Source: an uncultured Polyangiaceae bacterium
GTDB lineage: Bacteria > Myxococcota_A > Polyangia > Polyangiales > Polyangiaceae
DNA length: 64,000 bases
Reading direction: 5' to 3'
NCBI GenBank assembly: GCA_964506835.1
Contig: CAZDNG010000020.1
Coordinates: 14,847-78,846, forward strand
In this document: piece by piece, positions 6,778-51,600 of the stretch
Numbering within the stretch: the first letter of the stretch is position 1
Layout: each line of letters begins with the position of its first letter
Program-made: the position numbers and the translations under genes
The notes under the pieces: generated by a model
The model's database searches: none
What the model was told of the DNA's origin: nothing
The model's input: the letters and a program-made list of their open reading frames with translations, nothing else

Positions 6778-6798
6778 GCCCCATCGTGCTCGCGTCCG

Positions 6799-6824
6799 CG
6801 ACAGGCCCGATTTCGGGCCTGTCG
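6799..6824. terminator. hairpin between convergent genes (candidate bidirectional terminator)
   Basis: cgacaggcccg-attt-cgggcctgtcg forms an 11-bp perfect stem with a 4-nt loop. It lies between the stop of 5284..6777 (+) and the stop of 6829..8823 (-). There is no clear U-tract. Confidence 0.45.
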
Positions 6825-6828
6825 ACGA

Positions 6829-8823: not shown

Positions 8824-8832
8824 GGGTCGACC

Positions 8833-10101: not shown

Positions 10102-11372
10102 TTCCCCATCAGCTCCTCGGCCAGCTGTCGCGCCATCGCGACGTCGCCGCTTTGCCGATACGCCCGCACGTCGATCCACAGCGCTTCCGGTGCAAGCGTA
10201 CCTTGTCCGAACCGCTCCCGCCGCCGCTTTGTAGCTTCGAGCGCCAACGTCGAGTGCCCGAGACCGAGCTCCATCCTCGCGAGCGCGACCCAGGCCGCCT
10301 CCGCAGTCGGCCCTTCTCCCTCGGCGGCTTGGCGATATCGCTCACGCGCACCGGCATAGTCGCCCGCTCGACGCGCCGCCTCGGCTTCCGCAAGCCAATC
10401 GACGGGAGCCGACTGAGCGGGCTGGTTCTTGACGGGCGAAGCCGGAGCATCTGCGACGCGCTCACGCGGCGCGTCGTCGGCAGCGGCGACCTCGTTGCTC
10501 GCCGATTGAGTCGAAGGGCGAGCTGCAGAGACCGCCGACGTCGACGCCGCACGCGGCACTTCCGTCGCGCGAGGCGCCGCGCTCGGCAGAACCGGATGCT
10601 CGTCGCGCGACGCCGCGGGCGCCGAGAGCGCGTCGAACCCGACGACCTCGGGGGCGCCCACCAAAGCGCGCATCTCGTGTGCTCGTGTCACCTCGACTGC
10701 GCCGCGCGCAACGCCGAGCTTCGAATACAGGAGGCGCTCACCGGCGGTCAGCACTTGCACGCCTTCGGCGAGCCCGACCTCGACTCGGCCTTGCGACACC
10801 TCGACGAGGAGCGTGTCGGTCGACTCCGTTACCGCGAACACCGTTCCGTGGACGGTCACGTCACCGTCGCGCGTACGAACGACGAGCTCACCGCCCCCGA
10901 GATCCTTGGCGTGGACCGTGACCGTTCCGGCGCCGAGCGAGATCACGGTGCGGCACGGCGACGCCTCGGCGAGACTCACCTCGGCGTCGCGACCGCTCAC
11001 GGCGAGGGCCGTGGCGCCGAGATCGAGCTGGGGCCCCGCGGCGCCGGCGACGAAGCCGGCGTTCGCCGCGGGTCGTCGCGACGCGCACGCCGGCTCTGCG
11101 ACGTTGCTCGCCGGAGTGACCAGTGCGGCGGTCGGTTCCGCGCGGTCCCGATGACGATGCGCGACCATGAGCGTGGCCACGGCCGCCGCTGCGAGGAGGG
11201 GTCCGACGAACAGAGCAGCGCGCCGGGCGCGGCGCGCACTCCGCACCACGGCGGGGCCTTCCGCCACGAGCCGTCGAATGATTCGCTCGCGCGCCTCATC
11301 GTCGAGCTCCCCGCCGTCCGAAAGCGACGTCAGCTCTCCGACGCGGCGGCGGAATCCCTCATCCAACATCAT
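10047..11372 (-). CDS. anti-sigma factor: N-terminal cytoplasmic segment, one TM helix, FecR-like domain, C-terminal TPR-like repeats
   Basis: ATG-ATG at 11372/11369 (MMLDEGFRRR) overlaps the sigma gene's 3' end. TM helix ALFVGPLLAAAAVATLMVA. FecR-like beta region (VVRTRDGDVTVHGTVFAVTE..VEVSQGRVEV). Tail with TPR-like helices (AGDYAGARERYRQAAEG..). Confidence 0.7.
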   Translation of the reverse strand: MMLDEGFRRRVGELTSLSDGGELDDEARERIIRRLVAEGPAVVRSARRARRAALFVGPLLAAAAVATLMVAHRHRDRAEPTAALVTPASNVAEPACASRRPAANAGFVAGAAGPQLDLGATALAVSGRDAEVSLAEASPCRTVISLGAGTVTVHAKDLGGGELVVRTRDGDVTVHGTVFAVTESTDTLLVEVSQGRVEVGLAEGVQVLTAGERLLYSKLGVARGAVEVTRAHEMRALVGAPEVVGFDALSAPAASRDEHPVLPSAAPRATEVPRAASTSAVSAARPSTQSASNEVAAADDAPRERVADAPASPVKNQPAQSAPVDWLAEAEAARRAGDYAGARERYRQAAEGEGPTAEAAWVALARMELGLGHSTLALEATKRRRERFGQGTLAPEALWIDVRAYRQSGDVAMARQLAEELMGKWPSSPQARAARRWVSEE

Positions 11373-12096
11373 TGCCCTCCAGGAGGTCGCACAGGTACGG
11401 GTCGCTTTCTGCGATCGCCTTGAGTTCTTTCTGCCCGTAGTGGATACGAGACCGCGTGGCTGGGATGGAAGCGCCGACCATCTTCGAGATCGTTTCGACG
11501 TCTCGACCCTCCACCGCCCATAGAACGAACGCAATCCGCTTATCTACGGAGATTCGCGCGAGCGCTGCGTCGAGGCGACGCAATTGCTCTCCCGCGACAG
11601 CGTTGTCGTGCGGGCGATCGGGGCCGGCCGGCGCTTCTTCGGGCATCGGCGAGCGCAGTCTCGACCACGCGGTGGGTCGCATTGCTCTACGCGCCACGCG
11701 CACGGTAATGCCGCCAACGAACGTGGAGAGCGTGCTGTCTCCGCGGAAGTTCGGGAGCGCCCGGCACATCTCGAGGAAGACGTTTTGAACGAGGTCTTCC
11801 ATGTCGCCGCGCGGCCCGAGGAGCCTGCGCAGGAGTCGTTCGACACGGGGCAGCTGCTGGCGCGCGATGGCTTCGAGGTCTCGCGGTTCGCCCGCCCGCG
11901 CACGATCGAGGGCCTGCGGCGCCGAGCCCGTTCCCGGGCGCGCCGTGTCCAAGAGAAGTGCGCCAGCTTGGTCCACTTCTGGGTGAGTCGCCTGAGCCAC
12001 CCTCGGCGATGAAGCCAAGGGATCACTTCGCCCTTTGGCGGCACGCGAAGGGTCGTCGACAACGACCTGAAGTTCTTCCGTTTTTCGCGCGCTCAT
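11359..12096 (-). CDS. ECF-type RNA polymerase sigma-70 family factor
   Basis: Region 2 (EDLVQNVFLEMCRALPNFRG) and region 4 HTH (RIAFVLWAVEGRDVETISKMVGASIPATRSRIHYGQKEL). ATG at 12096 forms an ATGA overlap with the upstream stop at 12093-12095. The longer track ORF (to 12294) runs into the upstream gene. Confidence 0.8.
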   Translation of the reverse strand: MSARKTEELQVVVDDPSRAAKGRSDPLASSPRVAQATHPEVDQAGALLLDTARPGTGSAPQALDRARAGEPRDLEAIARQQLPRVERLLRRLLGPRGDMEDLVQNVFLEMCRALPNFRGDSTLSTFVGGITVRVARRAMRPTAWSRLRSPMPEEAPAGPDRPHDNAVAGEQLRRLDAALARISVDKRIAFVLWAVEGRDVETISKMVGASIPATRSRIHYGQKELKAIAESDPYLCDLLEGNDVG

Positions 12097-13103
12097 AGGC
12101 CAGAACTCCACGCGAATCCGGCGCGAGCACGAATCTCGACGCTGCCTTCGGCGAGGGCGGGAACGGTCGCGGATGGCCCGGGTGGTGACGTGTAGAAACT
12201 CGAAGGCGATGGCAACCAGGCGAGGCCAGCACCGACTCCGAGTGACACGCCGGCCCACAACCGATAGCGAAGCTCGGCACCGAAGCCGAACCACGGCGTA
12301 GCCCGGTTATCCTCGGCAACGAGGTCGGCGCGGTGATCGATCGCCTTCACGTCGATGAACGCCACGCCGCCTTCCGCATACCCGAGCGCCTCCGCGCGGC
12401 CATAGCGTTGACCGAGCGCGACACGCAGCGAAAGTTCGTTGCGCTCGTATTCGAGTCGCCCGTGATCGTCGGGCCCATTCGGAAGCACTAGCACTTGGTC
12501 ACGCTGGAGAGGGACGAGCCCGGAAACATGAAGGCCGATGCCGAGCCAGAGGGACGATGCCCGAGGTGAGACGTCCAAGTCTACGCCGGCGGCGGGCCGG
12601 ACGAGACCCACGTCGCCGTTGATACTCACGGTCTCGAGCACTTCGAGACCAATGACCCACCGGGTCGTGAGTGGGGGGGGCACCGTGGGCACTAGCGCCG
12701 CCGCGCGGGCGGAGGGCGCGTCGCGAACGATCTCGAGAAGTTCGGCGGCGGCAAGCGCCACCGCATAGGGGGCGGCGGCCGCCGGTGCGTCGAGTCGGCG
12801 AGACCCGACCGTGCCGTCCCCGGGACGCAGAACGCTGACGACGGCTCGGTCCGCGTCGAGAACCACCACCAAGGCCTCGGGCCACGACGTCCGCGCTTCA
12901 CCGACCAGGGCGTCGAGGTCCCGCGAATTGTGCGACTGACGCCGGACGACGGGCAGCTCGGTCTGAGTCGAGAAATACCGCGCGGCAGCTTCGGAGCTGG
13001 GCGATGCCGTGACGAGAGCCACGGTCTCGGCCTGGGCGGGGTCCGTGTGCAGAAACGCGGCGCCGAACGCCGCGACCACGGCCGCCGTGACGAAGGGGCG
13101 CAC
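12093..13103 (-). CDS. secreted protein with a beta-barrel-like C-terminal half (outer-membrane protein candidate)
   Basis: Signal peptide MRPFVTAAVVAAFGAAFLHTDPAQA. The C-terminal half has alternating hydrophobic/aromatic beta-strand patterns (WFGFGAELRYRLWAGVSLGVGAGLAW). It is the first gene of the ECF operon. Confidence 0.6.
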   Translation of the reverse strand: MRPFVTAAVVAAFGAAFLHTDPAQAETVALVTASPSSEAAARYFSTQTELPVVRRQSHNSRDLDALVGEARTSWPEALVVVLDADRAVVSVLRPGDGTVGSRRLDAPAAAAPYAVALAAAELLEIVRDAPSARAAALVPTVPPPLTTRWVIGLEVLETVSINGDVGLVRPAAGVDLDVSPRASSLWLGIGLHVSGLVPLQRDQVLVLPNGPDDHGRLEYERNELSLRVALGQRYGRAEALGYAEGGVAFIDVKAIDHRADLVAEDNRATPWFGFGAELRYRLWAGVSLGVGAGLAWLPSPSSFYTSPPGPSATVPALAEGSVEIRARAGFAWSSGL

Positions 13104-13275
13104 CCCTCCATCCTAGAATGCCCGGTTACGTTTCGCGAACCCACTCGATGCGAACTTCCCCTTTCGAAGGGAGAAATGAGCCCGTTCGTCGGTAGAGCCT
13201 TCGGGTATCATTCCGAGTGCGGCCCCGTCGAACGAGGCGTGGGGCCGGACCCGCCCCTGCTCACCCCCCTGTCCG

Positions 13276-13806
13276 ATGTCGAGGCTTCCCACCCGCAGCC
13301 TGTCCGCGCTCCGCGACGAGCTCCAGCTCCGCGGTCAGCGCCGTTCCATGGTGTTCCCCTCCGCGACGCCTAGCGTCATCGAGGCCGTCAGTATCGTCGA
13401 AGAGTACGGGGCCCTTACCGAGGCGATGTTCCTCGTCATGGCCGTCGAGCGCCGCATGCTCAACGTCCAGCGCCAGCTCCTCCGCGGCGCGCTCGACGTC
13501 TTGTCGAACGGCCGCGTCCGCACCGCTCACATGGAGGCGATGCTCGACGCTGCGTCCAGGCGACTTGCCGAAGACGGCTGGGAGAAGCGCTGTCAACGCG
13601 TCCTCGAATCATTGCGTCGCGACGCGATTCACGGCGAAAGCACCTTGGTACTCGCCGCGGCGGTCGCGGCCGCCGAAAGGAAGATCACCCCCGCCGAGCG
13701 GTCGGTGCTCGAACGATTCGCGCGCGAGCTGGGGGTTGCCGAGACGCGTCTCGACGAAGTGCTGCACGAGCTCACCGAAGACGAAGAGCCGCCGCCCGCC
13801 GGATAA
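13276..13806 (+). CDS. hypothetical protein, possibly TerB-like (tellurite-resistance TerB fold)
   Basis: 176-aa helical protein with two repeats of a pattern (E..FLVMAVE.. / LVLAAAVAAAERKITPAERSVLERFARELG) reminiscent of TerB/DjlA N-domains. Acidic tail. Hairpin downstream. Confidence 0.5.
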   Translation: MSRLPTRSLSALRDELQLRGQRRSMVFPSATPSVIEAVSIVEEYGALTEAMFLVMAVERRMLNVQRQLLRGALDVLSNGRVRTAHMEAMLDAASRRLAEDGWEKRCQRVLESLRRDAIHGESTLVLAAAVAAAERKITPAERSVLERFARELGVAETRLDEVLHELTEDEEPPPAG

Positions 13807-13820
13807 CGCGCAACACAAAA

Positions 13821-13849
13821 CCCGCGGGCAACCAAAGGTTGCCCGCGGG
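13821..13849. terminator. perfect 13-bp stem hairpin (candidate terminator)
   Basis: cccgcgggcaacc-aaa-ggttgcccgcggg, 15 nt after the stop of 13276..13806. The T-tract is weak (gtt). Confidence 0.5.
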
Positions 13850-14090
13850 TTCGAGAATCGCGCGGCGCGCGCCCCAGGGCACGCAGTGAGGAGGAGAAAA
13901 ACCGCTGGGGCGTTGGCCCACGACTTAGGGCCAGACCGAGGTTGGGGTGGGGACGGCCCGCGCTCTACGGAATTAGTAAGTCCATTCTGAGGGCCTCGCC
14001 ACCCCCGAATGACGATCCCTCAGCGCGACAACTCGCCGCAGGAGCACGCCCGCCGGACGCTCAGGCCGGTGAGCACCGGTGAGCGTTCAC

Positions 14091-14363
14091 TCACGAATGC
14101 TTGGCGACGAAGTCGGGAGGCAACTGCGACCCCTCGCCATAGAAGTACTTGTCGCATTCTGCCATCCAGATCTTCTGGCCCTGCTCGCTGGTCAGATCGA
14201 GACGGAATTCGTTCACGAGCATCTTCGAATGCTCGATCCACATGCGCCAAGCTTCCTTCGACACGTTGTCGAAGATTTTCTGTCCCATCTCGCCCTTGAA
14301 CGGGGGGCGGTCGAGCCCGGGCATCTCTTTACCGAACTTCACACACTGAACCAGGCGCGACAT
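14091..14363 (-). CDS. yggX: Fe(2+)-trafficking / oxidative-damage protection protein YggX
   Basis: 90 aa. MSRLVQCVKFGKEMPGLDRPPFKGEMGQKIFDNVSKEAWRMWIEHSKMLVNEFRL matches the YggX pattern I know from E. coli (..C....EA.GLD...YPGELGKRIY..ISKEAW..W...QTMLINE..L). Confidence 0.85.
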   Translation of the reverse strand: MSRLVQCVKFGKEMPGLDRPPFKGEMGQKIFDNVSKEAWRMWIEHSKMLVNEFRLDLTSEQGQKIWMAECDKYFYGEGSQLPPDFVAKHS

Positions 14364-14473
14364 TCGACGTCTCTTAGCGTGAGCGGCGGCCGCCGGCCAG
14401 GGGGGTTTTGGCAGGCGCGACCGCGCATGGAGGGGCGTCCTCGGTACCGCAGGCTTCGGTGTAAGGTCGGGCC

Positions 14474-15034
14474 ATGAATCGCGGTTTCCCGAGCTCGATT
14501 TGGATCGCTCCGGTCGTCATTTACGGTCTCGCCTTCGCCTCCCCCGCAGCGGCGCAGGCCACCATTCGCCATCCGGGTGATCATCCGAACTACTCCTTCG
14601 AGGCCGAGCCGCATCTCGCGCTGAACCCGTACCTGGACGACGCCGGGGTCGGCCCCGGCTTCCGCGGAACCGTGCAGATTCTCGACAACGGCTTCATCCC
14701 GTCGATCAACGACTCGATCGGCATCGGGTTCGGCCTCGACTTGCTCTTTTACGGGAACCCCTGCAACCACTGTGGCACCGCGACGGAGGTCGTGGTGCCG
14801 GTCGTCCTTCAGTGGAACTTCTGGCTGGCACGCCAATGGTCGGTCTTCGGTGAGCCCGGGTTCGATTTTCATTTCCATACGGGCCCGGCGCACCATCACT
14901 TCGACTTCGATCCGTTCGCGTTCTACGCGGGCGGTCGCTTCCACTTCAACGACAGCGTCGCCCTTACCCTGCGACTCGGCGCGCCGTTCTTCGACGACCA
15001 GCCGTTCTCGATCGGCGTGTCGTTCTTACTGTGA
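14474..15034 (+). CDS. small secreted protein, beta-rich (unknown function)
   Basis: Signal peptide ..VVIYGLAFASPAAAQA. Gly/aromatic-rich 160-aa mature part ending in FLL. Its 3' end overlaps the convergent gene by 9 nt. Confidence 0.55.
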   Translation: MNRGFPSSIWIAPVVIYGLAFASPAAAQATIRHPGDHPNYSFEAEPHLALNPYLDDAGVGPGFRGTVQILDNGFIPSINDSIGIGFGLDLLFYGNPCNHCGTATEVVVPVVLQWNFWLARQWSVFGEPGFDFHFHTGPAHHHFDFDPFAFYAGGRFHFNDSVALTLRLGAPFFDDQPFSIGVSFLL

Positions 15035-16795
15035 CGAGCGCTTGTTGCCGCGGCCCGCGATGTTGCCGAGCGCAGTGAGGTCGGCACGGCTGACCTCGCC
15101 GAGCACGACGAGGCAGACCGCGTAGATCGCGGCAACGAGCGCGCAAAAAACCAAGGTGACGATTTTTCCGCCCGCGGGGAGCGAGCGCGCGGCGAAAATG
15201 GCGACCGCCATCGCGACGACGACGCGGAGCGCGGTCGTCTTCGACACCACGGTGCCGGTCGTTCGATAGACCAGCACCGCGGCACACGCCGTGGACAGCA
15301 CGAGCCCCGACGACGTCGAGAGCGCCGTTCGCCAGAGGATCTGTTCGCCGAACGGCACTCCGCGCGCCCACGCGAAGCACGACGTGACGACGAGCACGAA
15401 CGCGACGAAGATCACGATCGCGCCCGCGCGCTCCCTGCCGAGGCTGGAGAGCACCGCGGTGAACACGCCGAGAATCGCGAACGCGCCGAATCCGAGCGTC
15501 AAAATCTGCATCGACCGAGTGCCGAGCTCGGCCGCTTCCACGGAATAAACCAGACGAATGAGCGGCCCCGACAAGCCCGAGGTGACGCTCACCATGGCGC
15601 CGGCCACGAGTAGCGCGACGCGCACGCCGGTCGACACGTAGCGCGCCACCGCCGCGCGATCGCCGGCTTGGTGCGCGGCGGCGAGCATCGGGAACAGGAT
15701 GAACGTGACGCTGATGAGCAACTGATACGGCAAGAACGAATAAAGCTGCGTCGCGCGATAAGCACCGACGAGCGGATCGGCCGCCGACGAAGGCAACCCG
15801 ATCCCCTGTGCCGCCTCGCCGGCGAAGCGCCGTAGCAACGTCAAATCCGCTTGAAGGAGCAGATTGAGGAGCACCTGACCGGCGAGGAGCGGCGCGAGAA
15901 AGGCGAGGTGCTTTTTCACCGAAGGGCCGCCCGCGCCGCGCTTTCCGAAACCGACGACGAACGCCGATGCGACGAAGATGCCGCCCGCGACGACGACGAA
16001 TCCGGTGACCGCGCCTTCCACGCCGCGGCCGGAGCGCGCGAGAAAGGCGCCCCCGGCGATGAGCGCCGCCGTCCGGAACGTCGCGAACACGACGTCGAAC
16101 GACGCCTGCGCGACGAATCGCCGGCGGCCGTTGAGCACGCCGATGAGCGGCGAATAGACGCCGTAAAAAAGGAGCACGAGGCTGACGACGCGAAGCGACG
16201 CGACGATGTGCGGCGCGTGCATGAAATCCGCAATCGACGGGGCCGCGGCGAAGAACGCGGCCGACGACAGGACGGCGAGCGCCGCGTGCAGCGCGAACAC
16301 GCGACGGACGGCGGCCGGTTGCTCCTCTGGCGTCGCGCGCGCCACCGCGTGGCTCACCCCCTGAATCGACGCGGTGACGATCGGGTTGTACGTGATGCTC
16401 GCCGCCGAGAGCACGCTCGACAGCGCGCCGTACCCGTCGAGCCCGAGCACCCGCGGCAGCGCCACTTGCTGCACGAGCCCCTGAAGAATGAAGTAGACCT
16501 TCGCGAAGGTGATGGCGAGACCGCCGCGACCGGCGGTGCGCGCGGCTTCGTCGGCCGAAGCATTTTCCGGCGCGACGGGGTCCGGGTCTCCCGCGGCGAA
16601 CGGGTCACCGCCTCGTATCGCGGACGAATCGTCGCTGGGCGTCGCGTCGGGCAAACTGCGCCCCCTATCGCACCGGGGGGGCGGAGGGGTCAACTGCCGG
16701 TTGCGGAGTGCAAGTTCGAATGTGGAAAACCGCGGCCCCGCCGATTGAAGCTTTCCAGGACCGCCGGCAAGGTAACGACGGCCGTCGTCAGGCAC
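15026..16795 (-). CDS. Wzx/MATE-like oligosaccharide or lipid flippase (polysaccharide biosynthesis protein family)
   Basis: About 12-14 TM helices. N-terminal pattern ITFAKVYFILQGLVQQVALPRVLGLDGYGALS is typical of this family. The true start may be TTG at 16693, which forms a TTGA overlap with the MMPL gene stop. The track start at 16795 overlaps that gene by 105 nt. Confidence 0.7.
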   Translation of the reverse strand: MPDDGRRYLAGGPGKLQSAGPRFSTFELALRNRQLTPPPPRCDRGRSLPDATPSDDSSAIRGGDPFAAGDPDPVAPENASADEAARTAGRGGLAITFAKVYFILQGLVQQVALPRVLGLDGYGALSSVLSAASITYNPIVTASIQGVSHAVARATPEEQPAAVRRVFALHAALAVLSSAAFFAAAPSIADFMHAPHIVASLRVVSLVLLFYGVYSPLIGVLNGRRRFVAQASFDVVFATFRTAALIAGGAFLARSGRGVEGAVTGFVVVAGGIFVASAFVVGFGKRGAGGPSVKKHLAFLAPLLAGQVLLNLLLQADLTLLRRFAGEAAQGIGLPSSAADPLVGAYRATQLYSFLPYQLLISVTFILFPMLAAAHQAGDRAAVARYVSTGVRVALLVAGAMVSVTSGLSGPLIRLVYSVEAAELGTRSMQILTLGFGAFAILGVFTAVLSSLGRERAGAIVIFVAFVLVVTSCFAWARGVPFGEQILWRTALSTSSGLVLSTACAAVLVYRTTGTVVSKTTALRVVVAMAVAIFAARSLPAGGKIVTLVFCALVAAIYAVCLVVLGEVSRADLTALGNIAGRGNKRSSQ

Positions 16796-19203
16796 GCGAC
16801 CTCGCCGAGCACCGCAACGACACCGAACAGAAACAGCGCGCGGTTCTCGGCGAGGAGCAGCGACGAATACCCGATGATCGTCGTCATCGAACAGAGCCCG
16901 ACGGCGCCGCCGGTCGAACGAATCGCGCGCGCGACGTCCTTCTTGCCGTCCTGGATGTAGCGCGCCATCACGTTCACGGCGTAGTCGATGCCGATCCCGA
17001 ACGTGATCGGGAAGGCGATGAAGTTCGCGAAATTGATGCGCACGCCGAGCGCGACGGTAGACGCCGCGAGCCAGAGCACGCCGATCACCAGGGACCCGAG
17101 CACGAGCATCGTCGTCGAACTGAACCCGAACACGAAGATGACCGTCGACGCCGCGCCCACGAACGCGATCAAGCTCGCGAGCGGCCCATCGAGCCGGATG
17201 CCATGAAGAATATCGGCGGACAGCGGCAGTGAGCCCGCCACGCGCGCCGGATGGTGCCCGGTCACGGTCGCGACGTCGCGGAGCGCCGTCACGAATTTCT
17301 CGATCGCCGGCCCTTCCCAGAGCGCGTGCGACGGCTTGGGGAACACGAGCACGGCGCGATCGATGCGACCGTCGCGCTCACGCATGCCGGCGGTGAAGGT
17401 CGGCGGCAGATCGGCGGCGGTGATCGGACGGGCGTCTTTTTGTCCGAGGAATCGATCCAGGGTCTTTCGCTGCTCGGCGGTGATCTCGGCGCGGATGCGC
17501 GGCGTGATGACGCGACGAATCGCCTTCGCTTCGTCGAGCTTCGCCTCTTGATCGTGCGGGAGCACGTCGTCCTCCGAGCGAATCGTGGAGATGAGCCCCG
17601 AAAGCGGCTCTTCCTTCGCCGCTTTTCGCAGCCGATCGACGACCGCCCGCGTTTCGCCCGGACCGTCGGTGAGCACCACGATCGGCGTGAGGTACGTGCC
17701 GAGCAAGGTGTCCATCTTGCGACCCCAGTATCCCTCGCCGGAGACCCACGTGTCGGCGCGACGGAGCTTCGAGAAATCGTACTCGAGCGACGACGACGAA
17801 ATCTGCCGCACGTGCCAGATCGCGAATCCGGTAACGATCACGCTGAGGGCGATGATCGGCGCGGGGATCCGCGTCACGACGCGCGCGACGACACCTGCCG
17901 GCGTTCGCGAGCCGCCGGCGCGACGAGCCAGGAGGGGAACGCCGCGGTCGACCCAGCCGAGCAGCGGCGGCATGAGCACCTGCGCGGTGAGCCACGACAT
18001 CACCATGCCGATGCCGCCGATCATGCCGAATTGGCGGAAGCCCTGAAACTCCGTGATCGACAGCGCCGCGTACGACGCTCCGGCGGCGAGGGCCGCGGCG
18101 AGAGTGCCGGCGCGCGCGCCCCACGCCGCGGTGACCAACGACTCTTCGACACTCTTCTGTGCGCGACGCTCTTCGACGTAGCGCGCAAGCAAGATGATGC
18201 CGAAGTTCACGCCGTTCCCGACGATGATCGAGCCGAGAAACGCCGTATTCGAGTTGAGCTCGGTGATCCTGAACGGCGGGAGCGACGCGACGGCGAACGA
18301 ATAGAGCGCGGCGAGCACGAGCGGCGGCACGAGCACGAGCACGCTCCGCCACCAGCGGTAGTAGACGATGATGACGCACGCGACGGCTAGAATGACGATG
18401 ATGGACGACAGCGACAGATCGGAGATGAGCGCGCTCGTCTCTTCGACGGCGATCGCGACGTCGCCGGTGTAGCCGACGTGCATGCCCGGCGCGTAGTGAG
18501 CCGTCCCGCCGAGCGACGCCACGTCGTCCTTCACCCGCCGCATCAATTCGCCGGAGTGTGTGTGTCCATTCTCGTTTTGGCCGACTTCGACGAGCAGCAT
18601 CGTGAGATGCAGCTCGGGGCTCGAGAAGCGATCACCCCTCGCCTTCGCTTCTCGAACGCCGAGGCGGTCTTCGTATTTTTTCTGGATATCGCCGAAGTCG
18701 AGCGATGGCACCGGCTCGTCGTCGTCGATCGCGAGGTCCATCCCCTTGGTGACCTCGTAGTCGCGGCGCCGTTCGATGCGATGGCGGATCTCGACGAGAT
18801 CGTCGACGTCGACGTAGAGCGCCGCGTTCTTCTCGAGGAACTCACGCTCCGCGGCGTCGCCGGTGCGCACGCGGCGCACGAGCTCCGCCGGATAAGCGCG
18901 AAGCTTCGCGGCGAGGTCGTCGATGAACCGCTCACCGGCGGGAAGGTTCTTCGCGTCGCCAGTGTCGACGATCACGCCGAGGAACTGGAGCGCCGGACTA
19001 CGTGCGCGGAGCTCGTCGACGGCGAGCGCGCTCGGGGCCTTGCGCGGCAGGAGCGCTTCGATGTCGCTGTTCAGGTGGCGATAGAGCCCGACCGTGCGAT
19101 ACGCGGCGGGAATGGCGAGCACGAGCGCGCAGATCCAAATCGCGCGCCCGTGGCGCAGGGTCCACTCCACGAACCGGCGCGTACGCGGTCCGGGCCCCGT
19201 CAT
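16690..19203 (-). CDS. MMPL/RND-superfamily membrane transporter (lipid-exporter type)
   Basis: ATG at 19203 (MTGPGPRTRRFVEW) forms an ATGA overlap with the upstream stop. It has two 5-6-TM bundles, each preceded by a large periplasmic domain, which is the MMPL layout. The track ORF extends to 19620 inside the upstream gene. Confidence 0.75.
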   Translation of the reverse strand: MTGPGPRTRRFVEWTLRHGRAIWICALVLAIPAAYRTVGLYRHLNSDIEALLPRKAPSALAVDELRARSPALQFLGVIVDTGDAKNLPAGERFIDDLAAKLRAYPAELVRRVRTGDAAEREFLEKNAALYVDVDDLVEIRHRIERRRDYEVTKGMDLAIDDDEPVPSLDFGDIQKKYEDRLGVREAKARGDRFSSPELHLTMLLVEVGQNENGHTHSGELMRRVKDDVASLGGTAHYAPGMHVGYTGDVAIAVEETSALISDLSLSSIIVILAVACVIIVYYRWWRSVLVLVPPLVLAALYSFAVASLPPFRITELNSNTAFLGSIIVGNGVNFGIILLARYVEERRAQKSVEESLVTAAWGARAGTLAAALAAGASYAALSITEFQGFRQFGMIGGIGMVMSWLTAQVLMPPLLGWVDRGVPLLARRAGGSRTPAGVVARVVTRIPAPIIALSVIVTGFAIWHVRQISSSSLEYDFSKLRRADTWVSGEGYWGRKMDTLLGTYLTPIVVLTDGPGETRAVVDRLRKAAKEEPLSGLISTIRSEDDVLPHDQEAKLDEAKAIRRVITPRIRAEITAEQRKTLDRFLGQKDARPITAADLPPTFTAGMRERDGRIDRAVLVFPKPSHALWEGPAIEKFVTALRDVATVTGHHPARVAGSLPLSADILHGIRLDGPLASLIAFVGAASTVIFVFGFSSTTMLVLGSLVIGVLWLAASTVALGVRINFANFIAFPITFGIGIDYAVNVMARYIQDGKKDVARAIRSTGGAVGLCSMTTIIGYSSLLLAENRALFLFGVVAVLGEVACLTTAVVTLPAVLESFNRRGRGFPHSNLHSATGS

Positions 19204-20189
19204 GGCGCGAGCCCCGCTCGCTCGGACGGATCGAAGGCAATGAATCGTGACAAGGTTCGGAACACGGTGAACGCGACGAGCGCGTAACCGATACCGACCA
19301 CGACGTCGATGATCCAGTGATGGTCGAGGTACACCGCGGCCCCGACCATCCAGGCGAAAAACAGCGCGGCGACCACGCGGAGCGGCCACACCAGGAAGCG
19401 CGCGCGCCGGAGCTTGGCGAAGCCCCGGAACCCCTCGAGCGCGATGAGCAGCGGATAAGCGACGTGCAGCGACGGCACGGCGCCGTAGACGTCGTTCGAA
19501 CGACCGTAGAAGCCACCGAAATACTTGAACCCGAGCCACGCATCGACGCGCGCGAGGTTCGGCCCTTCGCTGGCGTGCGCGCTCAGGTCGGCGGTGCAGC
19601 CGTGAGCGTGGAAGTACCACGGCGGTGCCGCCGGATAGAGGTGATAGGTCACGAAAGCAGCCACGTTCAGTGCGAGAAACGCTCCGGTGAACCGACGCAT
19701 CGCCGTGTAGTCGTGGAAATACAGGAAAACCGCGAACAAGAACGACGCACCGATGAAGGTTCCATAGGGAACGGCAAAGAAGACGTCGAGCGGCAGACTC
19801 GGATGAGCTTGAAATACATCGTGCAAGGTGACCCGCTCACCGTGCAACGTCGTGCCGAACCAGCGCATTTCGACGGCTCGAAGGTCGCAAATGTGCACTC
19901 GTTCGGGGGTTAGGCCCCAGTTTTTTACGAATCGCATCGAGTCGTAGAGAAGGCCCACGAGCCCGACCGGTAAAATCCCGAGATAGAGCCGTTTTCCCGA
20001 GATCCCGAGATACGGCAGGACGCCGCCCAGAAACAGAACGACGAGGAACTCCCAGCGATATTCGCCGCGGATGAGACAGTAGACGGGCCACGCGACGAAC
20101 GGCGCTGCGGGCAGGAGGGTCCACTTCGGCCAGAGCGCGCGCATTCGCGCCCATTGCCGGGCGAGCGGGCCCTCCGCTCGGGCCGTCAT
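19200..20189 (-). CDS. PAP2_C / AUR1-like (inositol-phosphorylceramide or sphingomyelin synthase-like) membrane phosphotransferase
   Basis: ATG at 20189 forms an ATGA overlap with the aminotransferase stop. Six or more TM helices. Catalytic motifs AVPSLHVAYP and YLDHHWIIDVVVG give the His / His-x3-Asp triad of PAP2-type head-group transferases. Confidence 0.7.
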   Translation of the reverse strand: MTARAEGPLARQWARMRALWPKWTLLPAAPFVAWPVYCLIRGEYRWEFLVVLFLGGVLPYLGISGKRLYLGILPVGLVGLLYDSMRFVKNWGLTPERVHICDLRAVEMRWFGTTLHGERVTLHDVFQAHPSLPLDVFFAVPYGTFIGASFLFAVFLYFHDYTAMRRFTGAFLALNVAAFVTYHLYPAAPPWYFHAHGCTADLSAHASEGPNLARVDAWLGFKYFGGFYGRSNDVYGAVPSLHVAYPLLIALEGFRGFAKLRRARFLVWPLRVVAALFFAWMVGAAVYLDHHWIIDVVVGIGYALVAFTVFRTLSRFIAFDPSERAGLAP

Positions 20190-21559
20190 GCGGGATCCCA
20201 GAGCCGCTTCTCGGAGACGAAGTCGAACACTTCGCGGAGCACGGCGACGCCGTTTCGCGCCGTTTCGAGGTCGATGGTGAGCGCAGGCTGGAGCCGGAAA
20301 TGGGGCGAATACGCCATGGTGAGCAGCCCTCGCTTCACGCATTCGTCGAAGATGCGGGTCGTCACGCCCTTCGATAGCGGCTCTTTCGTCTTCTTGTCCT
20401 TCACGAGCTCGACCGACAGAAACAAGCCGCGACCGCCGACGTGACCGACGAACGGGTACGCATCGACGAACGGCTCGAGCTCGCGCAGCATCGCCGCACC
20501 GACGGTGCGCGAATTCTCGACGAGCCCTTCTTCGTCGAGGATCCGGAGCGCGGCGGCGCCCGCGGCCGCGCCCAGCGCGTTGCCGCCGTAGCTCGACGAA
20601 GACCCCGACGGCACCGACCACGGACGCGCGGTGGAAATCACGTCCGTCGTCAGGACCCCGGAAAGGGGGAAACCACCCCCGAACGCTTTGCCGATCGTCA
20701 CGATGTCAGGAACGACGCCCGCGTGATCCATGCCCCAGTATTTTCCGGTGCGACCAAACCCCGTGAGCATCTCATCGGCGATGAAGAGAGCGTCATGGTC
20801 CTTCGCGATCGACTGCACCGCGGGCAAAAAGTCGTCGGGCGGAACGACGTTGCCGGCCGTGCCTTGCATCGGTTCGACGATGACGGCCGCGACGGCGCCG
20901 GCTGAAGCGACCTTGAGCTGCTTTTTGCCGAGCTCGACGCAACCGAGGCCACACTTCGGATACGTCGACCCGATGGGACAGCGATAGCAGTCGGCGTACG
21001 GAATGAGATGCGCGCCGGGCACCATCGGACCGAGGTGCTGCTTGGACGTCGAGCCCATCAGCGAGAGGGTGCCCATCGTTTTGCCGTGAAAGCCGCCCCA
21101 GAAGCTCACGAACTCGTACTTGCCGGTGTGCGACTTCGCGAGCCGGAGCGCGCTCTCCACCGCCTCGGCGCCGCTCGAATAGAGTTGAAGACGGTGTACG
21201 CTCCCCTTTCCGGGCGCATGCGCCGCGACGCGCTCGGACAGCTCGACACGCGCCGGACTCGTGAGCGAACCGACGCTGATCTTGGCGACCTGCTCGGTGA
21301 TCGCACGCGCGATCCCCGGGTGGGAATGGCCGAAGGCGTTCACGCCGATACCGCCGATGAAATCGAGGAGGGTGTTGCCATCGACGTCGGTGACGGCGCT
21401 GCCCGCGGCGCTCTCCGCGACGACCCCGGCCATGGTCGCGTACCCCTGAAGGCCCGGAGCGATGTGCGCGTCTTCGCGACGGCGAAGCTCCTGGCTCTTC
21501 GGCCCAGGAACGATGGTCTTCAGGTGGACCTTCTGGCCCTTCGGGTGCGTCGGCGTCAT
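20186..21559 (-). CDS. class III pyridoxal-phosphate-dependent aminotransferase (GabT-like)
   Basis: PGPKSQEL..DVDGNTLLDFIGGIGVNAFGHSHP, IVEPMQGTAGNV, FIADEMLTGFGRTG, and the PLP-Lys context VTIGKAFGGGFPLSG. ATG at 21559 forms an ATGA overlap with the GtrA stop. Confidence 0.85.
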   Translation of the reverse strand: MTPTHPKGQKVHLKTIVPGPKSQELRRREDAHIAPGLQGYATMAGVVAESAAGSAVTDVDGNTLLDFIGGIGVNAFGHSHPGIARAITEQVAKISVGSLTSPARVELSERVAAHAPGKGSVHRLQLYSSGAEAVESALRLAKSHTGKYEFVSFWGGFHGKTMGTLSLMGSTSKQHLGPMVPGAHLIPYADCYRCPIGSTYPKCGLGCVELGKKQLKVASAGAVAAVIVEPMQGTAGNVVPPDDFLPAVQSIAKDHDALFIADEMLTGFGRTGKYWGMDHAGVVPDIVTIGKAFGGGFPLSGVLTTDVISTARPWSVPSGSSSSYGGNALGAAAGAAALRILDEEGLVENSRTVGAAMLRELEPFVDAYPFVGHVGGRGLFLSVELVKDKKTKEPLSKGVTTRIFDECVKRGLLTMAYSPHFRLQPALTIDLETARNGVAVLREVFDFVSEKRLWDPA

Positions 21560-21978
21560 GGGTGCTTCGGGGCCGAGCCGAACACGTACGAGCGATGCAT
21601 GGGGAAATTCCACGCAACGCTGACGATGATCGCGACGACGAGGCGCACCGCTAGATACGGTGCGCGCAGCAAGGAAGTTCCAAGATATTCGCCGATGGCG
21701 TTCAGCCCGGCGCTCGCACCGGAAACGCCGGCGTAGCGAAGGGCCTGCCGTCCGACGGCTTCGTCCGCCCGCGCAAACGTGAAGTGACGGTTCATCATGA
21801 AATTCACCACGGCCCCGAAGGTCGCCCCGCACAACGTGGCAAGCGTCGGGCTGCGGTGAAAGTACTCGACGAGGAGTATCATCGTCCCGAAATCTGCGAC
21901 GGTGGCGACAACCGACGCGAACTGATGGCGCACGAACGCCATGCGGCCGGCCGCGCGCGCACCCGGGGCAGACGTCAA
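21556..21978 (-). CDS. GtrA-family membrane protein
   Basis: About 130 aa with four TM helices and the GtrA-like pattern FVRHQFASVVATVADFG....NFMMNRHFTF...NFPMHRSYVF. TTG at 21978 gives a TTGA overlap with the upstream stop (alternative ATG at 21942). Confidence 0.7.
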   Translation of the reverse strand: MTSAPGARAAGRMAFVRHQFASVVATVADFGTMILLVEYFHRSPTLATLCGATFGAVVNFMMNRHFTFARADEAVGRQALRYAGVSGASAGLNAIGEYLGTSLLRAPYLAVRLVVAIIVSVAWNFPMHRSYVFGSAPKHP

Positions 21979-22820
21979 CGGACGACCGTGCCGAGACCAC
22001 TAGCGTCGGGCTCGGACGGAGGCCGTCCGGCGGCCACGCGGGCGCGCTCCGCGTCCCTCGATTGCTCGCGGAGCGCGGCGAGCTGCGCGATGCGATGGAG
22101 GCGTTGCACGGCGGAAATGTTCGCGACCACGGCCACGACGAGGAGCGCGACGACGACGGGGACGTCGGCCACGATGGAGACCTGTACGAAACGCGGCGCC
22201 GCGGCGGCGAAGGGTGCGAGCGCGACGCCCGCCGTGAGATAGACCGCGCGCTCCTGCCGTCGCATCGCGCCGCGCGGGGCATCGACACGAAGCGCCTCGG
22301 CCTTCGCCGTCGCGTAGCTCACCATGAAAGAGCCGAGGAGGGTGAACAGCACGAGCCCGAGGAACAGCGCGTTCGTCCGGTAGAAAATCGCGAGGCCGCC
22401 CAAAAAGAAGAACTCGTTGTATCGATCGACGGCCGCGTCGAACGTTTCGCCGGCGTCCGATGCCGTGTTCGACTCGCGAGCGACGAAGCCATCGAGCGCG
22501 TCGCCGAGCGCCGAGGCGGTAGACAGCGCCGCGCCGATGCCGAAGTGGCCACCGATGAGCGCGACGCCCGCGCCAGCGCCGAGCACCAGGGACAACAGCG
22601 TGATCGAATTCGCGGTCACCCCGAGCCGCACGAGGGCCTTGGCGACCGGCGACAGTGCCCAGTAAGCCATTTCCATCGCGGTGTGCCCGAGCAGCACCGA
22701 CGAGCCCGCGGCATCGACGCGCGCGAACCTAACGGCACCCTGAAGCGCGACGCGAACCGCGTATGCCGCCCCGAGCGCGAGCAAGGCGACGACGAGCGCT
22801 GTGGAAGCGGCGAGATCCAA
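21975..22820 (-). CDS. CDP-alcohol phosphatidyltransferase family protein
   Basis: Exact family signature DG-x2-AR-x8-G-x3-D-x3-D in DALDGFVARESNTASDAGETFDAAVDRY. Multi-TM. TTG start 9 nt after the upstream stop, with a GGGGG stretch in between. Confidence 0.85.
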   Translation of the reverse strand: MDLAASTALVVALLALGAAYAVRVALQGAVRFARVDAAGSSVLLGHTAMEMAYWALSPVAKALVRLGVTANSITLLSLVLGAGAGVALIGGHFGIGAALSTASALGDALDGFVARESNTASDAGETFDAAVDRYNEFFFLGGLAIFYRTNALFLGLVLFTLLGSFMVSYATAKAEALRVDAPRGAMRRQERAVYLTAGVALAPFAAAAPRFVQVSIVADVPVVVALLVVAVVANISAVQRLHRIAQLAALREQSRDAERARVAAGRPPSEPDASGLGTVVR

Positions 22821-22829
22821 TGGCCCCCG

Positions 22830-23954
22830 TCATCCCGCCGGAAGCGCGAGCTCCCTCGTGCCCTGACGCAGGGGTTCGTGCAGTGGAAGCTCGCGTGAGC
22901 CCTGGCGCGCCGACTCGTACGCCGTCTCGATGAGCTCCACACACTTGAAGCTCTCGATCGCGTCGCGACCGACGTACTCGCGTCGATCGATCGCGTCGAC
23001 GAAGCGAGCGAACACCGATCGGAACCACTCGACGTGGCTCGCGTCCATCCAATTCGACGGGATGCGTTCGCGTTGAAAATCCCAGGTCGTGCGCCCGTCG
23101 GCGTCCTTCTTCGCGACCGACACTTCGACGTCGTCGTCTTCAACGCGGATCGCGCCTTGGTCGCCGTGGATCGTGTAGATCACCTTGCGCACGCCCGCGT
23201 TCCACGTGAGGTGCGCATTCACGATGCCGCGCGGGAACGTGATCGTGCACGACAGATCGTCTTCGGTGTCGAAAGCGCCGAGCGTCGAGGCCTTCGCCGT
23301 GATCGACGTCGGGAAACCGCCGAGCCAATCGAAGGCGAGGTAGAACGTGTGGCTGCCGTGATCCATCGCGATGCCGCCGCCGGAGTAGCGACGCTCGCGG
23401 CGCCAATCCGGCCGCCACTCGGCGACGCCTTTGGCGTGCGTGTTGCGGAAAGTCTGAAGCGTCACGAGCTTCACCTTGCCGATCGATCCTTCGTCGAGCA
23501 CGCGACGCACCGCCCGCACCACGGGGGCGTGCTTGTAGTTGTGCGACGGGAAGAGCACCCGACGCGCACGCCGCGCGTGATCGAGCATCGACACCGCGTC
23601 CTTCGCCGTCGTCGCCATCGGCTTTTCACAGAAGACGTGAAGACCGTGGTCGAGCGCCGTATGCGCGAGGGCCGCGTGCTCCGACGGTGGAGTCGAGATG
23701 TCGACGAAGTCGAGCTCTCGCTCGGCGTCGAGCATTCGGCGGTAGTCGTCGTAAGCGCGAAGATGAGGATAAGCGGTTTTTGCCTTCGCTAAGCGTGGAG
23801 CGCAGGAATCTGCGACGGCAACGATCTCGATCGGCAAGCCCGCCGCTCTCGACGCTGCGTACGCCGGCAAATGCCCATGTTCTGCGATGAAGCCGTACCC
23901 AATGACTGCTCCCTTGAGCATTGTCGGCGCCTCCAATGCGCTCCCGTTCTTCAT
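22830..23954 (-). CDS. Gfo/Idh/MocA-family NAD(P)-dependent oxidoreductase (inositol or sugar dehydrogenase-like)
   Basis: N-terminal Rossmann motif GAVIGYGFIAEHGHLPAY, the EKP motif (VFCEKPMATT), and a C-terminal alpha/beta domain. An alternative start is MLKGAV at 23921. Confidence 0.8.
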   Translation of the reverse strand: MKNGSALEAPTMLKGAVIGYGFIAEHGHLPAYAASRAAGLPIEIVAVADSCAPRLAKAKTAYPHLRAYDDYRRMLDAERELDFVDISTPPSEHAALAHTALDHGLHVFCEKPMATTAKDAVSMLDHARRARRVLFPSHNYKHAPVVRAVRRVLDEGSIGKVKLVTLQTFRNTHAKGVAEWRPDWRRERRYSGGGIAMDHGSHTFYLAFDWLGGFPTSITAKASTLGAFDTEDDLSCTITFPRGIVNAHLTWNAGVRKVIYTIHGDQGAIRVEDDDVEVSVAKKDADGRTTWDFQRERIPSNWMDASHVEWFRSVFARFVDAIDRREYVGRDAIESFKCVELIETAYESARQGSRELPLHEPLRQGTRELALPAG

Positions 23955-24141: not shown

Positions 24142-24702
24142 ATGGCCCCCACGGTTTTTCTGCTTCCTGGCCTCGGCAACTCAGGGCGCGACCATTGGCA
24201 GACCAATTGGGAAATCCGTTACGGCTACCACCGCGTAGAGCAAGATGACTGGGACCGCCCGAAGCGCGCCGCGTGGATCGCGCGTCTCGAAGCCGAGCTG
24301 TCGGCGGTGCGCACCGGCGTCGTTCTCGTCGCGCATAGTCTGGGTTGCGCCCTCGTGACCCACTGGGCACGCGAATACGGCGCGGGACGCGTCGTCGGCG
24401 CGCTGCTCGTCGCGCCCGCCGACGTGGACTCCGCGCGACGAACGCCCGACGAAGTGCGGGACTTTTCGCCGCTACCGATGAGGCCCCTGCCCTTCCCGTC
24501 GATCGTCGTCGCGAGCACCACCGATTCGTACGTGGAACACGACCGCGCCGCGCAGTTCGCGACTCGATGGGGCGCTGGATTTCGCAGCATCGGCGCTGCG
24601 GGCCACATCAACGCCGACTCACGCCTCGGCGATTGGAACGACGGACATCGGTTTTTCACCGAGCTCCTGGTCGAGCTAGGCGCCCCAACAAAAAATATTT
24701 AG
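24142..24702 (+). CDS. RBBP9/YdeN-family alpha/beta serine hydrolase
   Basis: 186 aa. LPGLGNSG..HWQ, nucleophile elbow VLVAHSLGC, and a C-terminal GH.N motif (AAGHINADS). Confidence 0.75.
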   Translation: MAPTVFLLPGLGNSGRDHWQTNWEIRYGYHRVEQDDWDRPKRAAWIARLEAELSAVRTGVVLVAHSLGCALVTHWAREYGAGRVVGALLVAPADVDSARRTPDEVRDFSPLPMRPLPFPSIVVASTTDSYVEHDRAAQFATRWGAGFRSIGAAGHINADSRLGDWNDGHRFFTELLVELGAPTKNI

Positions 24703-51524: not shown

Positions 51525-51600
51525 TGGCTCCAGAGGCTGGACTCGAACCAGCGACCCGGCGGTTAACAGCCGCCTGCTCTACCAACTGAGCTACTCTGGA
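51525..51600 (-). tRNA. tRNA-Asn: tRNA-Asn (anticodon GTT), CCA encoded
   Basis: The reverse complement folds as a cloverleaf: acceptor TCCAGAG/CTCTGGA, D arm GCTC-AGTTGGTA-GAGC, anticodon arm GGCGG-CTGTTAA-CCGCC, variable loop GGGTC, T arm GCTGG-TTCGAGT-CCAGC, discriminator G, CCA. Confidence 0.95.

Follow-up and report, generated by a model that had tools for sequence, protein, structure and literature searches.

A 64,000-nt stretch of DNA (hereafter the window; G+C ~66%) on contig CAZDNG010000020.1 of an uncultured Polyangiaceae bacterium carries seven tightly packed open reading frames (ORFs), denoted g1 to g7, that fill positions 15026-23954 of the minus strand, and the locus is very probably an inositol-lipid operon. 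Its core is a bacterial inositol-lipid cluster of a known kind; joined to this core are three elements that are absent from the characterized systems, namely, a dehydrogenase-aminotransferase branch, an acid-lined paralogue of phosphatidylinositol-phosphate (PIP) synthase and a linked exporter of the resistance-nodulation-division (RND) type. The complete reading, a Polyangiaceae inositol-lipid operon with a branch for head-group amination, stands in our estimate at even chances; we infer all its chemical steps, and the ring position of the amine, from family assignments, catalytic residues, synteny and the co-variation of the aminotransferase with the PIP synthase. The genes are as follows.

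g1, 22830-23954, minus strand, 374 aa (363 aa from the ATG at 23921): soluble Gfo/Idh/MocA NAD(P) dehydrogenase (Gfo).
g2, 21975-22820, minus strand, 281 aa, TTG start: predicted aminotransferase-linked PIP synthase (PIPS) paralogue.
g2 catalytic CDP-alcohol motif, 22425-22502, minus strand: residues 107-132, with the E125 codon at 22446-22448.
g3, 21556-21978, minus strand, 140 aa (128 aa from the ATG at 21942): small GtrA-family membrane protein.
g4, 20186-21559, minus strand, 457 aa: soluble class-III pyridoxal phosphate (PLP) aminotransferase (AT3) of a cluster-specific subfamily.
g5, 19200-20189, minus strand, 329 aa: AUR1-like PAP2_3 phosphotransferase (IPCS).
g6, 16690-19203, minus strand, 837 aa: MMPL/HpnN-like RND transporter.
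g7, 15026-16693, minus strand, 555 aa (542 aa from the TTG at 16654): MOP-superfamily flippase.

The counterpart of the core is found in Bacteroides thetaiotaomicron, where one cluster encodes the inositol-phosphate synthase MIPS (BT_1526), a PgpA-type PIP phosphatase (BT_1525), a GtrA-motif protein (BT_1524), a PIP synthase (BT_1523) and a phosphatidylinositol-dihydroceramide synthase (BT_1522), knockout of BT_1524 having produced no lipid phenotype (PMC9246714). The family matches of g2, g3 and g5 to BT_1523, BT_1524 and BT_1522 identify the same trio in the window, so that here, as in BT_1522-BT_1526 (PMC9246714, PMC8791184), a PIP synthase, a GtrA-motif protein and an AUR1-like synthase share one operon. 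An initial annotation of this DNA had likened the gene set to no characterized lipid pathway, a view that no longer holds; its prediction of a lipid head-group operon is borne out, with the CDP-alcohol transferase feeding the AUR1-like phosphotransferase. Unlike the Bacteroides cluster, the window lacks MIPS and PgpA and adds the Gfo/Idh/MocA dehydrogenase, the class-III aminotransferase and the MMPL/RND transporter.

Residues 107-132 of g2, DALDGFVARESNTASDAGETFDAAVD, fit the signature D1xxD2GxxAR(x8)GxxxD3xxxD4, and the top NCBIfam matches of the protein are archaetidylinositol-phosphate, BT1523 and bacterial PIP synthases, all with scores under the equivalog cut-offs (NF040950, 102.8 against 180; NF052561, 95.3 against 350; NF045883, 88.5 against 170). 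The best PDB match is Mycobacterium tuberculosis PgsA1 (6h53). Like the mycobacterial enzyme (PMC6506517, PMC4634129), g2 has the full signature together with the phosphate-site residues R94, S132, R152, R155 and R195 (M. tuberculosis numbering, alignment to 6h53), its RRQER and QRLH segments aligning with R152/R155 and R195, and its DR with D93/R94. R155 and R195 of PgsA1 bind the phosphate of inositol phosphate and are absolutely conserved in PIP synthases (PMC4634129, PMC6506517); the retention of all five residues therefore argues that the acceptor of g2 is still a phosphorylated cyclitol. The differences from PgsA1 include R83->D, A86->E, K135->T and P153->Q, and the product of g2 would go to an AUR1-like enzyme whereas that of mycobacterial PgsA1 goes to mannosyltransferases. 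Judged by its sequence, g2 is a PIP synthase with CDP-diacylglycerol as its predicted donor and a soluble phosphorylated cyclitol as its predicted acceptor, rather than, as previously supposed, a Kennedy-type transferase that couples a phospho-alcohol to a lipid.

The g3 protein gives a full-length match to Pfam GtrA_DPMS_TM and is assigned as the counterpart of BT_1524; in most relatives its gene is flanked by PIPS and AT3/IPCS. For g5, the match to Pfam PF14378 (PAP2_3) scores 67.3 bits, and the sole curated NCBIfam match is phosphoinositol dihydroceramide synthase (NF052609), with 137.6 bits against a cut-off of 480, which is not reached, and an alignment that spans profile positions 27-287 of 305. 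A search of the PDB with a profile of the g5 family retrieved fungal AUR1 only (E 6e-23). Like fungal AUR1 (PDB 9vj3, 9ivc), g5 possesses the PAAPPWY, PSLH and HHxxxD catalytic core, with PSLH at residues 239-242 and DHHWIID at 289-295, and the catalytic S240, H242, H290/H291 and D295 are invariant or at least 90% conserved among 22 homologues; unlike fungal AUR1, g5 is shorter, distant in sequence and has no Kei1 partner, and its acceptor and donor are predicted. By prediction, g5 takes the phospho-cyclitol head group off a glycerolipid and passes it to what would be a ceramide acceptor.

The identity of the alcohol is indicated by the related loci. The g5 family matched more than 1,500 homologues, mostly from Polyangiaceae, and a scan of species-representative genomes yielded 584 relatives; the locus counts given here refer to the best 80 of these, onto which the seven window proteins along with MIPS and PgpA (from L081 and L083; L numbers denote related loci) were mapped, with annotated neighborhoods used in addition and locus genes called by a simple codon-bias script. 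The recurrent full operon is MIPS-Gfo-PIPS-GtrA-AT3-IPCS-PgpA-MMPL (for example, L081, L090, L092, L042 and L043), and a basic form without Gfo and AT3 is MIPS-PIPS-GtrA-IPCS-PgpA-MMPL (Labilithrix luteola L029, L033, L036, L037). In terms of co-located MIPS, PIPS, PgpA and IPCS, the window carries PIPS, IPCS and also GtrA, with MIPS and PgpA present only in the operon of relatives, where they complete the five-gene set of BT_1522-BT_1526; both lie within the operon in L081, L087, L090 and L092, and tblastn over the 80 loci detected MIPS in ~22 and PgpA in ~35. Because MIPS and PgpA are syntenic in the relatives' operon, the alcohol, originally left open, is identified as inositol phosphate. 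The operon is devoid of MIPS and PgpA in the subclade of the window (the window itself, L001, L002, L093-L095) and in Pendulispora albinea (L088). The nearest public genome is the Polyangiaceae metagenome-assembled genome (MAG) L001, with 92-97% amino-acid identity across g1-g6; among cultured bacteria, the extended cluster is carried by Minicystis rosea DSM 24000 and Pendulispora albinea, and the basic one by Labilithrix luteola DSM 27648. The gene set of Chryseosolibacter (Bacteroidota, L079) is Bacteroides-like. In both basic and extended clusters, a gene for a 146-aa DUF6918 protein followed by one for a two-domain rhodanese (~295 aa) occurs immediately upstream of MIPS (L030, 51-1366; L090, 1701-3037; L092, 1805-3174; also L020, L043 and L013).

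The first member of the putative amination pair, g1, contains Pfam GFO_IDH_MocA and both C-terminal domains, with the motifs GYGFIA at residues 19-24 (GxGxxA), EKP at 110-112 and DHGSH at 198-202 (DxxxH). Its best PDB relatives are levoglucosan, scyllo-inositol and glucose-fructose dehydrogenases, so that the nearest solved relatives oxidize secondary ring hydroxyls of sugars and cyclitols; the top NCBIfam match is levoglucosan dehydrogenase (92.5 against 650), and the IolG equivalog TIGR04380 is not reached either (65.6 against 355). We predict that g1 oxidizes a ring hydroxyl of inositol-3-phosphate. The second member, g4, matches Pfam Aminotran_3 with 312 bits and stays under the cut-offs of all NCBIfam equivalogs, including TIGR00700 (GabT; 265.7 against 506.65). 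When aligned to Escherichia coli GabT, g4 keeps K268 (K291 in g4), D239 (D262), E206 and R398; among these are the Lys that forms the Schiff base, the PLP-binding Asp and the alpha-carboxylate-binding Arg. By contrast, R141 is replaced by Lys (K160), E211 by Thr (T234) and Q242 by Ile or Leu, and these changes are invariant in 30 cluster-linked orthologues; R141 and E211 are substrate residues of GabT. The replacements argue for a distinct aminotransferase subfamily rather than a GABA aminotransferase, and the predicted activity of g4 is that of a keto-inositol-phosphate aminotransferase. No transmembrane (TM) segments are predicted in g1 or g4.

Dehydrogenase-aminotransferase pairs that aminate sugars or cyclitols include NtdC/NtdA (kanosamine-6-phosphate) and StrI/StsC or IolG/MosB (scyllo-inosamine). 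The proposed logic of g1 and g4 is the same, in that a Gfo/Idh/MocA enzyme oxidizes the ring of a (phospho)sugar or inositol to a ketone, which a PLP enzyme then turns into an amine. The NtdA/StsC/MosB-type aminotransferases are, however, members of the DegT/DnrJ/EryC1 family and not class III like g4, and instead of lipid head groups these pairs yield soluble antibiotics or signals. The earlier proposal that the pair installs an amine is supported as probable.

Among the 80 loci, Gfo and AT3 occur together in 23, Gfo never occurs without AT3, and AT3 is found without a g1-type Gfo in 11; of the remainder, 34 with sufficient flank have neither (basic clusters) and 12 extend too short a distance upstream to be judged. 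At least three of the 11 AT3-only loci (L017, L028, L049) end at a contig edge, and in L004 Gfo itself is truncated by the contig. Seven of the 11 display a second architecture, in which a fusion of PIPS, GtrA and an unknown domain is followed by AT3, MMPL and IPCS. In L073 (3568-5886, plus strand), the fused PIP synthase and GtrA make one 772-aa protein, the C-terminal ~390 residues of which comprise a single predicted TM helix and then a domain rich in beta structure; AT3-MMPL-IPCS come next, with no g1-type dehydrogenase, and similar fusions are present in L064, L067, L076 and L077. The extra 390 residues of the L073 fusion were considered as an alternative dehydrogenase and dismissed, since they match no Pfam domain and do not resemble g1. 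All seven AT3 orthologues with inspected context (six from the AT3 match list and one reached via a g5 homologue; 73-100% identity), including those of Minicystis rosea and Pendulispora albinea, lie inside the cluster. MIPS immediately precedes Gfo in relatives, the two genes overlapping by 8 nt in L090 and L092; the possibility that Gfo stands in for the absent MIPS was rejected given that the two co-occur and overlap in most extended clusters.

The PIP synthase changes together with AT3. Alignment columns that separate AT3-linked proteins from those of basic clusters number five in the PIP synthase, none in IPCS, one in MIPS (in a gappy region) and one in PgpA, and no meaningful specificity-determining positions emerged in the latter three. 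Two of the five PIP synthase columns fall inside the catalytic motif, and a neighboring position undergoes a charge swap, the motif being ...AS(D/E)xGE..DA..DR in AT3-linked proteins and ...(R/K)xG(A/Q)..D(S/T)..DR in the canonical ones, M. tuberculosis PgsA1 and Chryseosolibacter. The residues D122, E125 and A129 of g2 are equivalent to positions 83, 86 and 90 of PgsA1, and g2 lacks the canonical acceptor-site residues (R/K at 83, A/Q at 86). Most AT3-linked PIP synthases have Asp or Glu at position 83, two residues before the motif glycine, where most of the canonical ones (n=24) have Arg or Lys, and the Ser/Thr of canonical enzymes at position 90 becomes Ala; at positions 83/86/90, the window type is accordingly D/E, E, A, compared with K, A, S in the Bacteroidota type (Chryseosolibacter, L079). 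Across 61 occurrences of the motif, with AT3 scored within 4 kb downstream, Glu86 accompanies AT3 in 35 and occurs without it in two (L026 and L038), and a residue other than Glu is never accompanied by AT3, all 24 such cases being AT3-free (Fisher's test, 5e-15, phylogeny ignored).

In a neighbor-joining tree without support values, the Glu-type PIP synthases are found in three separate clades. L030 holds both types in the order PIPS(canonical)-MMPL-MIPS-Gfo-PIPS(Glu-type)-GtrA-AT3-IPCS, and its sister L020 has only the canonical type; the two L030 paralogues, at 1633-2376 (canonical, GA..DA) and 7311-8144 (AT3-linked, GE..DA) on the plus strand, flank MMPL-MIPS-Gfo. In L026, a Candidatus Binatia MAG, a Glu-type PIPS-IPCS pair (6663-10169, plus strand) directly follows genes for a fatty-acid hydroxylase and a fatty-acid desaturase; another desaturase gene lies downstream, and there is no AT3 or Gfo within 9 kb. 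The hydroxylase and desaturase genes of L026 are the one indirect pointer to ceramide as the acceptor.

By motif numbering, M. tuberculosis positions 86 and 90 correspond to Ala59 and Ser63 of MjPSS, the only CDP-alcohol phosphotransferase solved with a bound acceptor, in which the acceptor (Ser1) site that holds the reacting serine is made up of this pair (PMC8633023); in M. tuberculosis PgsA1, the A90Y substitution is impairing (PMC6506517). A new carboxylate near the reacting hydroxyl would be expected for an acceptor with an ammonium adjoining that hydroxyl. The acceptor-site switch, combined with the translational coupling of MIPS and Gfo, suggests that oxidation and transamination would take place on soluble inositol-3-phosphate, before lipid assembly, and the same order is suggested by the PIP synthase being the only one of the tested proteins that co-varies with AT3.

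The reverse order, in which ordinary phosphatidylinositol (PI) or inositol phosphorylceramide (IPC) is made first and its inositol, already bound to lipid, is then oxidized and aminated by Gfo and AT3 on the cytoplasmic side of the inner membrane, would fit the location of the AT3 gene between the genes for two membrane proteins, GtrA and IPCS, and its translational coupling to both, as well as the lack of adaptation in IPCS and PgpA, which is expected if these enzymes handle plain inositol. Nevertheless, such tailoring after assembly appears quite unlikely: the PIP synthase alone co-varies with AT3, and does so at acceptor-site positions, two PIP synthase types are kept in the single locus L030, MIPS is translationally coupled to Gfo, and Gfo and AT3 look like ordinary soluble proteins.

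A plain inositol-lipid cluster, which would make PI or ceramide phosphoinositol as in Bacteroides and Myxococcus xanthus, with Gfo and AT3 serving epimerization, salvage or amino-acid metabolism, is another explanation, which we regard as unlikely. The core trio and its phosphate-binding residues are canonical, ceramide phosphoinositol has been reported from M. xanthus (cited in PMC9246714), the closest solved relatives of AT3 are GABA-aminotransferase-type amino-acid enzymes and racemases, and some clusters have AT3 without Gfo. However, R141 and E211, the substrate residues of GabT, are no longer present in the AT3 subfamily, AT3 orthologues sit in the cluster in seven of seven inspected contexts, and a plain cluster gives no reason for the near-perfect link between AT3 and the altered charge at the acceptor site of the PIP synthase.

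Several points weigh against amination of a soluble precursor, the reading that we favor. The inosose aminotransferases known to us belong to the DegT family, not to class III. Seven loci and L039 have AT3 and an acidic PIP synthase with no g1-type Gfo nearby, so that the dehydrogenase partner would not be obligatory in cis. IPCS and PgpA show no matching adaptation, though both would handle the altered head group. The association test is blind to kinship, and the trees, built by neighbor joining, carry no support values. In PgsA1, T82 and G85 line the cytidine cleft (PMC6506517), and positions 83 and 86 could therefore contact the donor instead of the acceptor. Across the 64 kb of the window, tblastn with the relatives' proteins (E<=10) detected no relative of MIPS or PgpA, in line with the initial annotation, which had noted the lack of an inositol-phosphate synthase; equally, candidates for a hidden MIPS, PgpA, TetR or Aminotran_1_2 gene elsewhere in the window were noise only. 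Finally, no report of an amino-inositol (inosamine) lipid or of this gene set was found in the literature searched, the coverage of which was incomplete. Taking both sides together, amination of the head group has, in our assessment, an even to very slightly better than even chance, and amination ahead of the PIP synthase step, as read from the sequences, would be somewhat less probable than that.

The layout of seven head-to-tail minus-strand ORFs proposed initially was confirmed in its coordinates, and the family labels agree with the Pfam domains of g1 to g7 (GFO_IDH_MocA, CDP-OH_P_transf, GtrA_DPMS_TM, Aminotran_3, PAP2_3, MMPL and Polysacc_synt_3/MatE), the EKP and CDP-alcohol signatures being present in g1 and g2, respectively. 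From g1 to g7, with ORF starts trimmed to those that fit the codon bias, the junctions are a 9-nt gap, TTGA, ATGA, ATGA, ATGA and TTGA; the gap and the three ATGA overlaps (g3/g4, g4/g5 and g5/g6) stand, the latter regardless of start choice, whereas the two TTGA overlaps previously reported (g2/g3 and g6/g7) require TTG starts. Public gene calls for the same contig (ENA ERZ27245402, L084) start g3 at the ATG at 21942 (a 32-nt gap to g2), g7 at the TTG at 16654 (a 35-nt gap) and g1 at the ATG at 23921. The g2/g3 overlap is plausible because PIPS and GtrA overlap by 4 nt in relatives. Scans for terminator-like and promoter-like sites inside the operon found none beyond chance.

The g6 transporter has the MMPL architecture of HpnN/MmpL-type RND exporters (Pfam MMPL), with HpnN (hopanoid) and BstA (sterol) as the best subfamilies; in contrast to these, it scores far under the equivalog cut-offs (NCBIfam HpnN, HAE3 and BstA), gene linkage to inositol-lipid genes being the sole pointer to its cargo. 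Homologues of g6 adjoin both basic and extended clusters, and it is a reasonable inference that g6 exports the inositol lipid from the inner membrane toward the outer one. In L039 (3641-6829, plus strand), MIPS is followed by genes for an MlaC-family lipid-binding protein and an outer-membrane efflux protein (OEP), and then by PIPS-AT3-GtrA-IPCS; there are hints that the MlaC and OEP genes are an alternative lipid-trafficking partner replacing MMPL.

The flippase g7 matches Pfam Polysacc_synt_3/MatE and has 12 predicted TM segments and close homologues in Polyangiaceae. In L093-L095, it follows the cluster after gaps of 35-80 nt, with the same flanking genes as in the window. In the L005/L096 genome, the g7 orthologue (~254-272 kb) and the inositol cluster (~32-53 kb) lie ~210 kb apart on one contig, the detached orthologue keeping the downstream Iron_traffic, sigma-70/FecR and HMG-CoA synthase genes, and no g7 homologue was found in the 80 loci or in extended clusters outside the subclade of the window. 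Being detached in L096 and missing from other extended clusters, g7 belongs to a conserved flank, not to the module; as a candidate module member it was rejected, its adjacency being limited to the window's subclade and its downstream synteny being preserved where it is detached. Membership of g7 in the inositol module is thus improbable, although it may be read through from the operon. Of the three translocation components counted in the initial annotation, the MMPL/RND transporter probably exports the product and g7 falls outside the module; likewise, the synteny that had been suggested as a check holds for the genes in many Myxococcota, with g7 not co-inherited.

These results also bear on a non-lipid product, whereby the PAP2_3 enzyme would hand phospho-(amino)inositol to a glycan or envelope polymer flipped by GtrA and the MOP flippase. 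The GtrA and Polysacc_synt_3 families are usually tied to polysaccharide modification (PMC9246714), and no sphingolipid synthesis gene was found among the scanned window ORFs. As the initial annotation had stated, serine palmitoyltransferase-like (Aminotran_1_2) and cytidylyltransferase families are absent from the 37 window ORFs scanned against Pfam (~11 small ORFs excluded). We consider this explanation very unlikely, however, given that the flippase is not a module member, the AUR1 IPC synthases are the sole solved relatives of the PAP2_3 family, PIPS-IPCS has genes for fatty-acid hydroxylation and desaturation as its neighbors in the Binatia locus L026, and the conserved partner is an RND exporter of lipids rather than of glycans.

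Two plus-strand genes border the seven-gene block.

Ser_hydrolase gene, 24142-24702, plus strand: divergent.
ORF, 14474-15034, plus strand: convergent.

Downstream of the block, the window encodes, at 5335-6777 (plus strand) and 10047-15034, a 186-aa ORF, Iron_traffic, a sigma-70-type factor, FecR and an HMG-CoA-synthase-like gene. L093-L096 share the gene order of this flank, even when the inositol cluster lies at another site, which argues that the cluster is an insertion next to a stable chromosomal neighborhood. Upstream of the operon, the window encodes a 522-aa protein with a weak, below-cut-off match to a phytase-like esterase (30335-31903, minus strand) and a 280-aa protein of the Phosphoesterase family (PF04185; 34645-35487, minus strand), either of which could act on inositol phosphates or phospholipids; the ORFs at 27574-28269, 28749-30338 and 33272-34474 have no Pfam match. 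Farther away, a 1,589-aa ORF (52918-57687, minus strand) with four PA14 domains and GLEYA-type matches probably encodes a secreted carbohydrate-binding or adhesin protein, and the single Rfam match in the window at the gathering threshold is a tRNA (51528-51600, minus strand).

In the pathway that we propose, a MIPS encoded elsewhere in the genome (in many relatives, in the operon) would make inositol-3-phosphate, a ring hydroxyl of which would be oxidized by g1; g4 would transaminate the resulting ketone to an amino-deoxy-inositol phosphate (inosamine phosphate), and the dedicated g2, the acceptor site of which would have gained acidic residues, would join the latter to CDP-diacylglycerol. 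A PgpA-type phosphatase encoded outside the window would then remove the ring phosphate, g5 would transfer the phospho-inosamine head group to ceramide, and g6 would move the lipid toward the outer membrane. The specific prediction that soil Polyangiaceae, Minicystis and Pendulispora make phosphatidyl-inosamine and inosamine-phosphoceramide by way of a soluble precursor, an acid-lined PIP synthase and RND export is tentative, its odds falling somewhat short of even. A search of the literature, incomplete in coverage, gave no relevant paper on myxobacterial inositol lipids.

To our knowledge, the genetics of bacterial inositol lipids was not worked out until 2022, and then for Bacteroidota and Actinobacteria alone. 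The present analysis indicates that the core pathway is widespread in soil Myxococcota, where it is coupled to an RND exporter, and that a large sub-lineage appears to have gained a branch for amination together with a synthase that co-evolved with it. Should the product be an amino-inositol lipid, the locus would be a clear case of CDP-alcohol phosphotransferases retuning their acceptor specificity via one or two residues, and the lipid would bring a new bacterial head group that alters membrane charge: a zwitterionic aminocyclitol head group would lower the negative charge of the outer membrane, like aminoarabinose or phosphoethanolamine on lipid A.

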